64,000 bases of DNA, taken from assembly GCA_016180645.1 (NCBI GenBank), contig JACPAV010000008.1, positions 1-64,000 on the forward strand. Reading direction: 5' to 3'. This document shows positions 28,385 to 43,977 of this stretch, piece by piece. The notes beneath the pieces were generated by a model. It saw nothing but the letters and a program-made list of their open reading frames with translations, was not told the origin of the DNA and did no database searches. Position 1 is the stretch's first letter. Every line of letters starts with the position of its first letter. Both the position numbers and the translations under genes were made by a program. The stretch is from Nitrospirota bacterium (GTDB lineage: Bacteria > JACPQY01).

Positions 28385-28498
28385 CGGAGAGGGTGGGATC
28401 CTGAAACGGCAATCCTGCCGTTTCCCAGCATCCCTGTGGAGGTCGCACATCCAGTGCTCCCTGAAGATCTCTCCGCTTGACTTCGCGGACTTGTCAAT
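28385..28498 (-). repeat. tRNA 3'-linked unit ending in a duplicate of the tRNA-Ser 3' end
   Basis: Minus strand ends ATCCCACCCTCTCCG, identical to the tRNA 3' end; GGA-loop hairpins inside. Confidence 0.75.
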
Positions 28499-28584
<86 letters not shown>

Positions 28585-28665
28585 AAATGTGCGCCTGACG
28601 GCGCGAGGCCATCCTGGCCTCGATGGTGCGCGACCGCACCGTCCTGGCTGGTCACGCACCTCTCC
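28585..28665 (-). repeat. tRNA 5'-linked unit starting with a duplicate of the tRNA-Ser 5' end
   Basis: Minus strand GGAGAGGTGCGTGA (tRNA nt 1-14) followed by CCAGCCAGGACGGTGCGG. Confidence 0.75.
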
Positions 28666-28718
28666 GACCGAACATGGATCGTGAATTGTGAATCGTGAAT
28701 CGTCAAGAGGCGGCCGCT

Positions 28719-42162: not shown

Positions 42163-42197
42163 CTCTTCACTCATCACTCATCACTATTCACCTCCGT

Positions 42198-42412
42198 GGA
42201 GAGGTGGCCGACCAGCCATGGACGGCGCGGCACTTGCCGACTCAGGTCGAGCAGGATAGCGAGACAAGAGCAACGGCAAGTGGCGGAGCGAGGCCAAGTA
42301 ATTTGGGAGAGGTGGCCGAGCGGCCAGCCACGGAAGGTGCGGCACCTGCCGCAAGAAAGCCGAGCGTGACGCGAGGCAGTGCCAACGGCAGGTCAGCGAG
42401 GCCGGGTAAATT
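42198..42412 (+). repeat. Two tandem units (108 and 107 nt), each starting with the tRNA-Ser 5' end
   Basis: GGAGAGGTGGCCGA at 42198, 42306 and 42413 (the tRNA itself); homologous structured bodies. Confidence 0.85.
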
Positions 42413-42501
42413 GGAGAGGTGGCCGAGCGGTCGAAGGCAGCCGCCTGCTAAGCGGCTGGGCTGAGAAATCGGTCCCGTGGGTTCAAATCCCACCCTCTCC
42501 G
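42413..42501 (+). tRNA. tRNA-Ser(GCT)
   Basis: GGAGAGG/CCTCTCC acceptor stem, anticodon arm GCCGC-CTGCTAA-GCGGC, long variable arm, GGTTCAAATCC T-arm; CCA not encoded. Confidence 0.93.
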
Positions 42502-42622
42502 TACATGGATGTACGGCCCTTGAAGATGCCGGGAGGGTCAGGGCGACCCGGAAGGCTGCGGAAAGGGCCGCGGAAGTGAACCGAAATGCGGGAATGCAAT
42601 CCGTTGAATCCCTCCCTCTCCG
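42502..42622 (+). repeat. GGA-rich tRNA 3'-linked unit ending in a near-duplicate tRNA 3' end
   Basis: Ends GAATCCCTCCCTCTCCG versus tRNA AAATCCCACCCTCTCCG. Confidence 0.75.
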
Positions 42623-42627
42623 ACTCC

Positions 42628-42657
42628 TTGACCCTTTCCCCTTGGGCAGGTTAGACT
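42628..42657 (+). promoter_or_regulatory. Putative sigma70 promoter for the rSAM gene
   Basis: TTGACC-N18-TAGACT, 10 nt before GTG 42668. Confidence 0.45.
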
Positions 42658-42667
42658 ACCCATACCC

Positions 42668-43798
42668 GTGAGGGAAACAGAGACCGTCAATCGAGAGAAC
42701 TCCGTTCTCGCCAAGGTGCGGCGGACCGTCTTCGAGAAGTGTATTCCGATCAACGCCACGCTCGAAATCACTCTCCGTTGCAACCTCCGCTGCCACCACT
42801 GCTACAACTTCGACCGCGCGGAACCGTATTCCGCCCATCGCGCGGGGTTTGAGCTTGCCACCGCGGAAATCTTCAGAATCATCGACGAATTGGCGGAAGC
42901 AGGCACACTCTATCTCAATCTCACGGGTGGTGAAGCCACGCTCCGCCCTGATCTCATGGACATCATTCGTCGGGCACGGCAGCGACACATGATGGTCAAG
43001 ATCAAGTCCAACGGACTCAGGCTCGACCCGTCGAGGGCTCGGGACATAGCCTCGGCTGGGGCGTACGGGGCAGACATCAGCCTGTATGGCTTCAGCGAGG
43101 CCACCTACGCATCCTTCACCCGGACTCCCGGCTCTTTCCGCCGCGCTCTGTTGGGGATTGGGGCAGCGCGAGAGGCGGGACTCCGCGTCCATCTTTCCAT
43201 ATGTATCCTCCGAACGAATCTGCACGAAATCGAAACGATGGCAGACTATGCCAAGTCCCAGGGACTTCCTTACAGCCTCGATCCCCAGATCACCGCGCGA
43301 TACGACGGCACCAAGAATTCCTCGGATCTCCGGGTGGACGCCGCCACCCTCGCATCGTTGTACCGCGGCATCCTCCGCGAAACCGTCACGATTCCCAATT
43401 CACCCCCACACCTGCCCCCCCAATGCTCCTGCGCCCGCTCCACGTGCGGCATTACGGCTTTCGGAGAGGTCTACCCGTGTATTGGAGCACCGCTGGCCGC
43501 GGGCAACCTCCGGGAAAGCAGCTTTGCCGACATCTGGGCTCACTCCCCGGTGCTGCAACGGATTCGTGGCCTGACCTTGGAAGATTTCCCGACCTGCAAG
43601 CCCTGCTCCTACCGCGCGCAGTGTCGCAGAAGCTCAGGCGCCGTCTACTCCATTACCGGCGATTACACCGGAGCAGAGGATTGGACGTGCATGGAGGCCG
43701 AGATCCTGCACACGATAGCGCGCGAAACCCCGGGGAACCCGGCTCCATCCGCATCGCCGCAAGGTTCGGTCCGCCGGTTTTCCGTGGAATTGAACTGA
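42668..43798 (+). CDS. Radical SAM/SPASM domain protein, putative peptide maturase
   Basis: CNLRCHHC, LTGGEA, SPASM-like CSCARSTCGITAFGEVYPC...GNLRESSFADIW...CKPCSYRAQC. Confidence 0.9.
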   Translation: MRETETVNRENSVLAKVRRTVFEKCIPINATLEITLRCNLRCHHCYNFDRAEPYSAHRAGFELATAEIFRIIDELAEAGTLYLNLTGGEATLRPDLMDIIRRARQRHMMVKIKSNGLRLDPSRARDIASAGAYGADISLYGFSEATYASFTRTPGSFRRALLGIGAAREAGLRVHLSICILRTNLHEIETMADYAKSQGLPYSLDPQITARYDGTKNSSDLRVDAATLASLYRGILRETVTIPNSPPHLPPQCSCARSTCGITAFGEVYPCIGAPLAAGNLRESSFADIWAHSPVLQRIRGLTLEDFPTCKPCSYRAQCRRSSGAVYSITGDYTGAEDWTCMEAEILHTIARETPGNPAPSASPQGSVRRFSVELN

Positions 43799-43812
43799 GG
43801 GAGGTACCGCTC

Positions 43813-43977
43813 ATGGCAAATGAAAAGCGTTCGGAAGACGGCCCACGGCCGCCCAAGATACCCTACGAGACGCCCCGCATCCAAAGCGAAACGATTTTCG
43901 AGACCCAATCGCTCGTCACCTGCGGAAAAGTCAGCAGCGATCCCGGGTGCGTGACGGACGGTTTCCTCGACAGCTGA
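43813..43977 (+). CDS. Putative RiPP precursor peptide, 54 aa
   Basis: SD GGGAGG; MANEKRSEDGPRPPKIPYETPRIQSETIFETQSLVTCGKVSSDPGCVTDGFLDS; YxxP leader motif; two Cys in the C-terminal part. Confidence 0.75.
   Translation: MANEKRSEDGPRPPKIPYETPRIQSETIFETQSLVTCGKVSSDPGCVTDGFLDS

Follow-up and report, generated by a model that had tools for sequence, protein, structure and literature searches.

The tRNA-Ser(GCT) gene of a Nitrospirota bacterium is flanked by non-coding units that carry the triplet GGA in predicted hairpins, raising the question of whether these flanks are RNAs that sequester the regulator CsrA/RsmA or have another origin. The original prediction, which concerned positions 42501–42622, was that the tRNA flanks are packed with GGA-loop hairpins and that tRNA processing could release them as CsrA-titrating RNAs. 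We addressed this in the window, i.e., the whole 64,000-nt stretch of DNA that was analyzed, and in the genome that holds it (G000; 4.7 Mb, 61% GC, 97% complete); a phylum-wide search took in two genomes, G000 and G001, both of one family. We conclude, with a probability of about 0.58, that the stretch is a mosaic of two tRNA-attached repeats, i.e., half of a trailer cassette and a 69-bp, CC-bounded element whose insertion at tRNA ends likely takes place at the DNA level, and that its CsrA-type loop probably binds CsrA on the tRNA precursor, with a regulatory effect that is likely minor.

Results

Anatomy of the two tRNA loci

ARAGORN and Rfam placed two tRNAs in the window, tRNA-Ser(GCT) and tRNA-Ser(CGA). 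At both loci, copies of the tRNA 5' end lie upstream and copies of the 3' end downstream. The first reading of the sequence missed these tRNA-end copies, and also the membership of the units in genome-wide repeat families, which we named A (leaders), B (the type at 42499–42569) and C (trailers ending in a tRNA copy).

42198–42305 (+): leader unit 1, a 14-nt copy of the tRNA 5' end (42198–42211), then a family A element from 42212 with loops ATGGAC and AGGATA
42306–42412 (+): leader unit 2, an 18-nt copy of the tRNA 5' end (42306–42323), then a family A element from 42324 with first loop ACGGAA and a second loop without GGA
42413–42501 (+): tRNA-Ser(GCT), intact, CCA not encoded
42499–42569 (+): family B element with a 69-bp period from CC to CC; the final three bases of the tRNA lie within it, and its parts are the ATGGAT hairpin (42501–42514), the basal stem (42515–42521/42563–42569) and the inner hairpin (42535–42549)
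42572–42622 (+): T-arm-like 3' half of a family C cassette, closed by a 17-nt copy of the tRNA-Ser 3' end (42606–42622)
42628–42657 (+): sigma-70-like promoter match for the downstream radical SAM gene, marking the end of the trailer region
28586–28665 (−): leader unit of tRNA-Ser(CGA), a 14-nt copy of the tRNA 5' end (28652–28665) plus a family A-like module with two AGGAY hairpins
28499–28584 (−): tRNA-Ser(CGA)
28385–28474 (−): complete family C cassette of 90 nt, with an acceptor-like basal stem, two GGA-loop arms, a T-stem-like helix and a 15-nt copy of the tRNA 3' end (28385–28399)

The trailer at 42501–42622 is a family B element followed by the 3' half of family C; the 5' half of C is absent, and the inner hairpin loop of the B element has become AGGGC, with loss of its GGA. 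The terminal tRNA copy is identical to tRNA-Ser(GCT) at 15 of 17 positions, and lies inside an 18/18 match to tRNA-Ser(TGA) on contig C65. The locus was contiguous in contigs of two sequencing runs from one study, labeled groundwater metagenome and possibly the source of the window DNA, which ruled out an assembly artefact; no empty allele was seen in the contigs of those two runs. A prophage att-site scar was also rejected, there being no integrase among the flanking genes scanned and a spacer of ~100 nt.

The radical SAM/SPASM gene (42668–43977, +) is followed by a 54-aa ORF with no Pfam match and two Cys near its end, and the two look like a peptide-modification pair. Upstream of both tRNA leaders, heptamer runs of the TCATCAC and ATTCACG types, which were found genome-wide, fill the spacer 3' of TTGAC hexamers at 42168–42190 and 28680–28705.

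GGA content and predicted folding

All of the motifs originally quoted for 42501–42622 are present, i.e., six GGA, GTAC-ATGGAT-GTAC, TGC-GGGAAT-GCA and a GGCCCTT/AAGGGCC stem, as are the seven GGA of the tRNA-Ser(CGA) trailer and the hairpins named for both leaders. Whether the flanks are packed with GGA beyond chance depended on the part considered. The claim held for the count in the tRNA-Ser(CGA) trailer (p = 0.023, dinucleotide shuffles) and for the loops of the two leaders (looped-GGA p = 0.003 and 0.0003), but not for six GGA in 122 nt, which gave p = 0.24 (3000 dinucleotide shuffles) and was equaled or exceeded in 966 of 13,970 intergenic windows of that length. Looped-GGA enrichment had p = 0.039 at 42501–42622 and p = 0.087 in the tRNA-Ser(CGA) trailer. 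The 122-nt trailer folded no better than its shuffles (z-score 0.00); at tRNA-Ser(CGA) the z-scores were −4.0 for the trailer and −7.4 for the leader.

In the predicted ensemble of the tRNA-Ser(GCT) trailer, one GGA occupied an apical ANGGAN loop (ATGGAT), three lay in internal loops, and two were mostly paired, with unpaired probabilities of 0.01–0.23. One of the latter is that of TGC-GGGAAT-GCA, which had been put forward as a GGA-loop hairpin; its letters are there, but its GGA is predicted to be mostly paired. With apical loops holding one of the six GGA here and two of the seven in the tRNA-Ser(CGA) trailer, the multi-loop hallmark of CsrB/RsmZ-type RNAs invoked in the original prediction did not emerge.

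The ATGGAT hairpin is predicted to include G42501, the last base of the tRNA. Its GGA was unpaired with a probability of 0.97 in the predicted fold of the precursor and 0.31 in that of the excised trailer, because a cut at the tRNA 3' end takes away part of the stem. No terminator-like site was found between tRNA-Ser(GCT) and the trailer, so that read-through would give the tRNA precursor a single high-affinity CsrA site together with a small number of weak GGA sites; the strong site may form best while still attached to the tRNA.

In predicted folds, the pairing partner of the 3' copy at 42606–42622 is either the 5' strand of the tRNA itself or an upstream 5' copy. Such pairing, and the inclusion of G42501 in the ATGGAT hairpin, would suit a role in cis in tRNA maturation, with the duplicated ends as decoy acceptor stems, the GGA hairpin covering the discriminator base, and CsrA, or folding by itself, tuning how the precursor is processed or how stable it is; for the E. 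coli TLR repeat, a role as an RNase E site has been proposed, according to the available part of PMC8144298. A cis role nevertheless seems very unlikely to us, since the pairing comes from predicted folds, such a hairpin is absent from both strands at 21 of the 46 core stable-RNA loci, and the elements sit at different tRNAs in G000 and G001.

Families A and 0 are dispersed through the genome

Exact pattern matches to family A numbered 31 in G000 and four in G001, with none for the reversed control. A fuzzy search gave 61 matches, some of them spurious (20 in divergent spacers, 13 tandem antisense, 12 tandem sense, 12 in called genes and 4 convergent). Most copies lie away from tRNAs, and several are antisense inside long open frames; copies in long open frames of G000 with the GGA strand antisense to the mRNA are at C53:92368, C42:30431, C17:83968, C25:97467 and C62:14321. 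A pattern scan of GTDB found eight loci, two in a record titled 'Nitrospirae bacterium' and six singletons in unrelated taxa, the latter taken as chance matches; csrA was present in none of the five genomes tested among those with matches. A further family, family 0, sits inside GTAG-type REPs in G000. For the largest family, the split between leading and lagging strands by local GC skew was 52 vs 38.

Some tRNA loci are composites. In the tRNA-Ala(CGC) trailer (G000 C53:66127–66305), a family A element at the CCA is followed by one of family B, whose inner hairpin contains a family 0 element in antisense. In the leaders of tRNA-Ser(TGA) in G000 (C65) and tRNA-Ser(CGA) in G001 (L023:590–800), the upstream tRNA copy (37 nt in the former, split as 18 + 21 nt in the latter) extends to the anticodon loop, and its D loop and anticodon loop are interrupted by repeat modules.

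Family B is a 69-bp, CC-bounded element

All four family B copies in G000 lie behind stable RNA genes, i.e., tRNA-Ser(GCT), tmRNA (two copies) and tRNA-Ala(CGC), while the G001 loci examined contained four copies, at tRNA-Ser(TGA), tRNA-Asp and on both sides of tRNA-Ser(GGA). The CC-to-CC period was 68–70 bp in each of the five copies measured. We also scanned for the architecture irrespective of sequence (CC, GGA hairpin, GG-started stem, closing CC), obtaining 72 matches for the GGA core, some of them double counts or chance matches, against 6–20 for seven other loop cores. The period was 69 in 26 of the 72, which span families A, B and the REP-nested family 0 and include the element at 42499–42569. 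Family B stems covary: in an alignment of seven related rows, one of them misaligned at the 3' stem, 87% of cells were paired and eight cells changed on both sides, above all slid controls and with 0 of 500 shuffles, a figure that is not a probability because there are only seven related sequences.

The copy upstream of tRNA-Ser(GGA) in G001 is fused to the reverse complement of the tRNA 5' end, i.e., it is antisense. The precursor there would carry TCC, not GGA, and an antisense copy glued to a tRNA 5' end points to insertion at the DNA level. The copies are dispersed, of fixed length, with defined junctions and at different sites in relatives, as is characteristic of a non-autonomous mobile mini-element. 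The arrangement at tRNA-Ser(GCT) likely arose when a B plus half-C trailer was transferred from tRNA-Ser(TGA) through recombination of Ser 3' ends that are nearly identical, since the 3' copy matches tRNA-Ser(TGA) at 18 of 18 positions and, in G001, family B is followed by family C at tRNA-Ser(TGA).

A search for the mobilizing enzyme returned seven Y1 transposase and three IS110 matches, none with a copy of family A, B or 0 in its 150–400-nt flanks, and no reverse transcriptase; the seven Y1 genes are flanked by other repeats. Neither an autonomous partner nor an excision intermediate of the 69-bp element was found in the enzyme flanks or in the contigs of the two runs. HUH-type single-strand transposition is familiar from the biology of IS200/IS605 and RAYT elements, and by analogy an unlinked single-strand (HUH-type) transposase would most likely move the 69-bp element.

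Two large tRNA arrays, C21 (21779–25649) and C29 (62471–67783), with 30 and 26 ARAGORN calls, lie beside the core set in G000 and are probably on mobile DNA; the former contains two GGA-hairpin repeats. In G001, a GIY-YIG nuclease ORF lies directly 3' of tRNA-Pro(GGG) (L050:532–831), and a similar-looking ORF follows tRNA-Leu(GAG) in L025.

The loops carry a CsrA-type signature in both orientations

Intergenic C-A-(N)-GGA-N-G hairpins with at least five pairs numbered 168, against 17.6 ± 4.8 in 20 shuffles, placing this core top of 64. ANGGAN hexaloops were 12-fold more frequent than in shuffles (115 vs 9.6); with either G or the last A changed, the counts were 23 vs 20, 19 vs 15 and 38 vs 28. 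The CsrA consensus is ANGGAX on a stem, according to the accessible text of PMC4005645, and CLIP data place AUGGA in the apical loop (PMC5207318, available portion). The fixed and free positions of the ANGGAN loops coincide with this consensus, and we therefore refer to a CsrA-type signature. Judged by its sequence, the ATGGAT loop would probably bind CsrA when transcribed.

The enrichment of GGA loops on the sense strand, offered in the original prediction as a check, did not appear. With genes called by our own hexamer model, hairpins between co-oriented genes were evenly distributed (69 sense vs 61 antisense, or 103 vs 96 with a wider loop definition). Nor was there a significant bias at the 46 core stable-RNA loci (15 sense, 8 antisense, 2 tied and 21 without; p = 0.21), a set that leaves out 56 array tRNAs and three doubtful calls and counts shared spacers for both neighbors.

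This lack of orientation bias between genes, together with the antisense copies at tRNAs and in open frames, is what might be seen if the loop were read on single-stranded DNA by the mobilizing enzyme or another host protein, its match to the CsrA consensus being coincidental. Inner loops, moreover, are often without GGA and tolerate ACGAT or GTGAT, such non-GGA pentaloops being 2–3-fold enriched, and median ratios for a 12-nt hairpin pattern (counts of 109 vs 13 in G000 and 42 vs 4 in G001) were equal in genomes with and without csrA (2.5 vs 2.45 in a Pseudomonadota sample, 2.01 vs 2.0 in a domain-wide one). We nevertheless find a reading on DNA distinctly unlikely, given the position-by-position agreement with the consensus in the accessible text of PMC4005645 and the presence of the same loops in family C, which has a different architecture. 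The extreme tail of the distribution also argues against it, being csrA-positive only: ratios of at least 6 were found in 12 of 61 csrA-positive vs 0 of 40 csrA-negative Pseudomonadota genomes (201 searched, at least 20 hits) and in 2 of 24 vs 0 of 25 domain-wide (300 searched). Pooled, strong expansions occurred in 14 of 85 vs 0 of 65 genomes. This is a weak test, in that the cutoffs of at least 20 hits and a ratio of at least 6 were set after the first sample was seen, at least one genome is apparently in both samples, related genomes are not independent, and the pattern is dominated by coding matches; the tail-only association of loop expansions with csrA is thus weakly supported.

The host genome encodes CsrA next to FliW

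The prediction called for a csrA gene in the genome, and one was found at C3:150640–150999 (PF02599, 80 bits), with fliW (PF02623) following directly; G001 likewise has the csrA–fliW pair. There were eight matches to flagellin-domain genes in G000, and GGA counts in flagellin leaders were 1–8, against a genome mean of 2.8. Residues Leu2, Leu4, Arg6, Val42, Arg44 and Ile47 of the G000 protein resemble the pattern of E. coli CsrA. Its RNA specificity is not guaranteed, because the activity of CsrA homologs varies even where sequence is conserved (PMC13443453, in the part available).

Family C cassettes are predicted to fold like tRNAs

A model of family C matched nine sites in G000 and two in G001. 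Eight of the former, which were the training set of the model, lie behind Ser, Pro and Gly tRNAs, all in sense. The ninth is in a gene leader, and this only copy without a tRNA (C45:29368–29461) lies between a promoter-like stretch and the gene start and has no acceptor-like ends. With strict filters on 61 genomes, the model matched none of the 59 outside G000 and G001, and 10 of its 11 matches were training sequences. A metagenome pattern scan was uninformative on distribution: among 80 of at least 119 stretches, none had the match within 260 nt behind a tRNA, and those examined look like chance matches in coding DNA.

Each cassette contains four to seven GGA. In seven complete units, with start points picked by eye, the first six bases equal or nearly equal those of the host tRNA (exact in four; 4–5 of 6 in three Gly units), so that the core common to the units is flanked by ends that fit Ser, Pro or Gly. 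The six-base copy lies a constant 14–15 nt before the conserved module and is complementary to the duplicated acceptor strand; the basal stem was 6 bp in four of seven predicted single-unit folds and 4–5 bp or broken in the other three. At other G000 loci the 3' copies are of 15–17 exact nt, except for 13 at tRNA-Pro(TGG). Double-sided changes were seen at 7 of 15 pairs, and the predicted folds are tRNA-like. The host-matched ends may have been selected because tRNA nucleases process them, or may simply stem from a duplicated tRNA gene that was remodeled.

It is for family C that the idea of a dedicated sponge is strongest, i.e., that cassettes are kept at tRNAs since processing releases GGA-rich, CsrA-titrating RNAs with tRNA transcription. 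The sense orientation behind tRNAs, the GGA content, the double-sided changes and the acceptor-like stem matched to each host tRNA all favor it, as does the presence of csrA. The density of GGA hairpins is also 2.5 times higher in spacers that flank tRNAs (23 in 24.4 kb) than in other spacers (216 in 584 kb), and those near tRNAs are 35 sense vs 19 antisense, in counts that are not independent. Most copies of the GGA-hairpin repeats are far from tRNAs. We think a dedicated sponge doubtful, for several reasons. The tRNA-Ser(GCT) copy has lost the 5' half of C and the GGA of its inner B loop, and excision is predicted to weaken its best hairpin; few GGA of the tRNA-Ser(CGA) trailer are apical; and the sense bias is not significant at the level of loci. 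In addition, the csrA gene is linked to fliW, and CsrB/C-type RNAs and FliW are reportedly anti-correlated (PMC4894983, available text), while 19 TLRs of E. coli tRNA operons scored below 0.01 as CsrA binders, i.e., are predicted non-binders, in the part of PMC8144298 available.

A further-reaching proposal is that family C rebuilds the acceptor stem of its host tRNA but has CsrA-binding hairpins in place of the inner arms; tRNA-processing nucleases would then release a stable ~90-nt CsrA sponge with tRNA synthesis. Such an RNA antagonist, in a lineage of the FliW type and distant from Gammaproteobacteria, would have been recruited from mobile hairpin repeats which exploit CsrA in their own right. 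We regard this as unlikely.

Comparison with known systems

At gathering thresholds, Rfam identified only the tRNAs in the window; relaxed E-values gave partial, tRNA-driven matches (e.g., sX4) below threshold. There was no match to TwoAYGGAY (RF01731) at gathering or at E up to 1–5, and none to the CsrB/C or RsmX/Y/Z models.

The closest counterparts are TLRs and TwoAYGGAY-like repeats, and the repeat at tRNA-Ser(GCT) works like a cross between the two. E. coli TLRs (RrA/B/F) have been known since 1978 and are described as having no known function; those of rRNA operons bind CsrA in vitro, and deletion or overexpression of RrA/B/F caused minor, same-direction changes only (all from the accessible part of PMC8144298). 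Like the units described here, TLRs are non-coding units in tRNA transcription units, with a 15–18-nt copy of a stable-RNA 3' end and tandem copies (same partial source). The unit at tRNA-Ser(GCT) lies downstream of a gene in a tRNA operon, as TLRs do, and its 17-nt copy, 15 of 17 identical, is of the same kind as the 18–19-nt TLR 3' repeat, but shorter and inexact. Unlike TLRs, the present units have upstream mirror units with 5'-end copies, family C begins with near or exact copies of the host's first six bases, and the parts belong to dispersed, genome-wide families.

For TwoAYGGAY, CsrA binding has been proposed (PMC4333381), and for TwoAYGGAY-like repeats a mobile-like spread (bioRxiv 10.64898/2026.09.22.753630), in the available text of each. 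Going by those texts, the shared features are two GGA-loop hairpins, many copies per genome, REP association, and proposed CsrA binding and mobile-like spread; what differs here is the CC-bounded 69-bp unit with one hairpin outside a long stem, the docking on tRNA and tmRNA ends, and the phylum. As for topology, family C has two arms with AGGAY/TGGAT loops, while in family B one of the hairpins lies outside the stem, and the second loop is degenerate at 42499–42569.

The ANGGAN loops closed by C-G on short stems resemble those of CsrB/CsrC and RsmX/Y/Z (PMC4005645, accessible text). Unlike those RNAs, each unit has one or two apical sites rather than many, lies in either orientation and has no terminator of its own that we could find; unlike in their hosts, CsrA here is FliW-linked. 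REP/REPIN sequences with RAYT (TnpA-REP) and non-autonomous IS200/IS605 derivatives are short palindromic non-coding repeats that are dispersed, in tandem and sometimes in-frame within genes; families A and B differ in having no GTAG foot, and no cognate transposase was found. The 3'ETS-leuZ, a tRNA trailer that base-pairs with small RNAs and so acts as their sponge (cited in PMC8144298 and PMC5207318, available portions), is a precedent for a tRNA-trailer sponge, but its target is small RNA rather than CsrA, and it is no repeat. A search of openly available literature listed no report of tRNA-shaped CsrA-binding trailers, and in the main texts examined we found no earlier description of 5'-end mirror units, the CC-bounded 69-bp architecture or a host-matched acceptor stem.

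Discussion

From what was observed directly, i.e., the anatomy of the locus, the repeat families, their two orientations, the stem covariation, the ANGGAN signature and the csrA–fliW pair, we propose that the 69-bp hairpin element, being non-autonomous, would land at a CC at the foot of a stem, here the CC that ends the acceptor stem, beside a trailer cassette. Acceptor ends would offer a CC on either strand as a landing site. Titration of CsrA would then be a by-product of where the element lands, and the effect of the trailer on CsrA is probably small, by analogy with RrA/B/F of E. coli.

Along with the negative searches for a mobilizing enzyme and an empty allele, the following counts against a mobile element. 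In G000, all four copies of family B are behind stable RNA genes and eight of nine copies of family C are behind tRNAs in sense, a confinement to stable RNA trailers that fits selection as well as targeting; and there is no obvious reason for purely selfish DNA to keep a CsrA-exact loop.

If binding of CsrA is incidental, the element would be an ordinary repeat, and a caution that GGA loops near a tRNA do not by themselves make a sponge. Both mobility and regulation have been considered for TwoAYGGAY-like repeats, and G000 brings together fixed-length, likely mobile units, an exact CsrA loop signature, docking at tRNA ends and a tRNA-shaped trailer. The short, defined RNAs of this organism would suit tests of whether CsrA sponges may originate from mobile repeats, and of whether RNA antagonists of CsrA may exist beside FliW.
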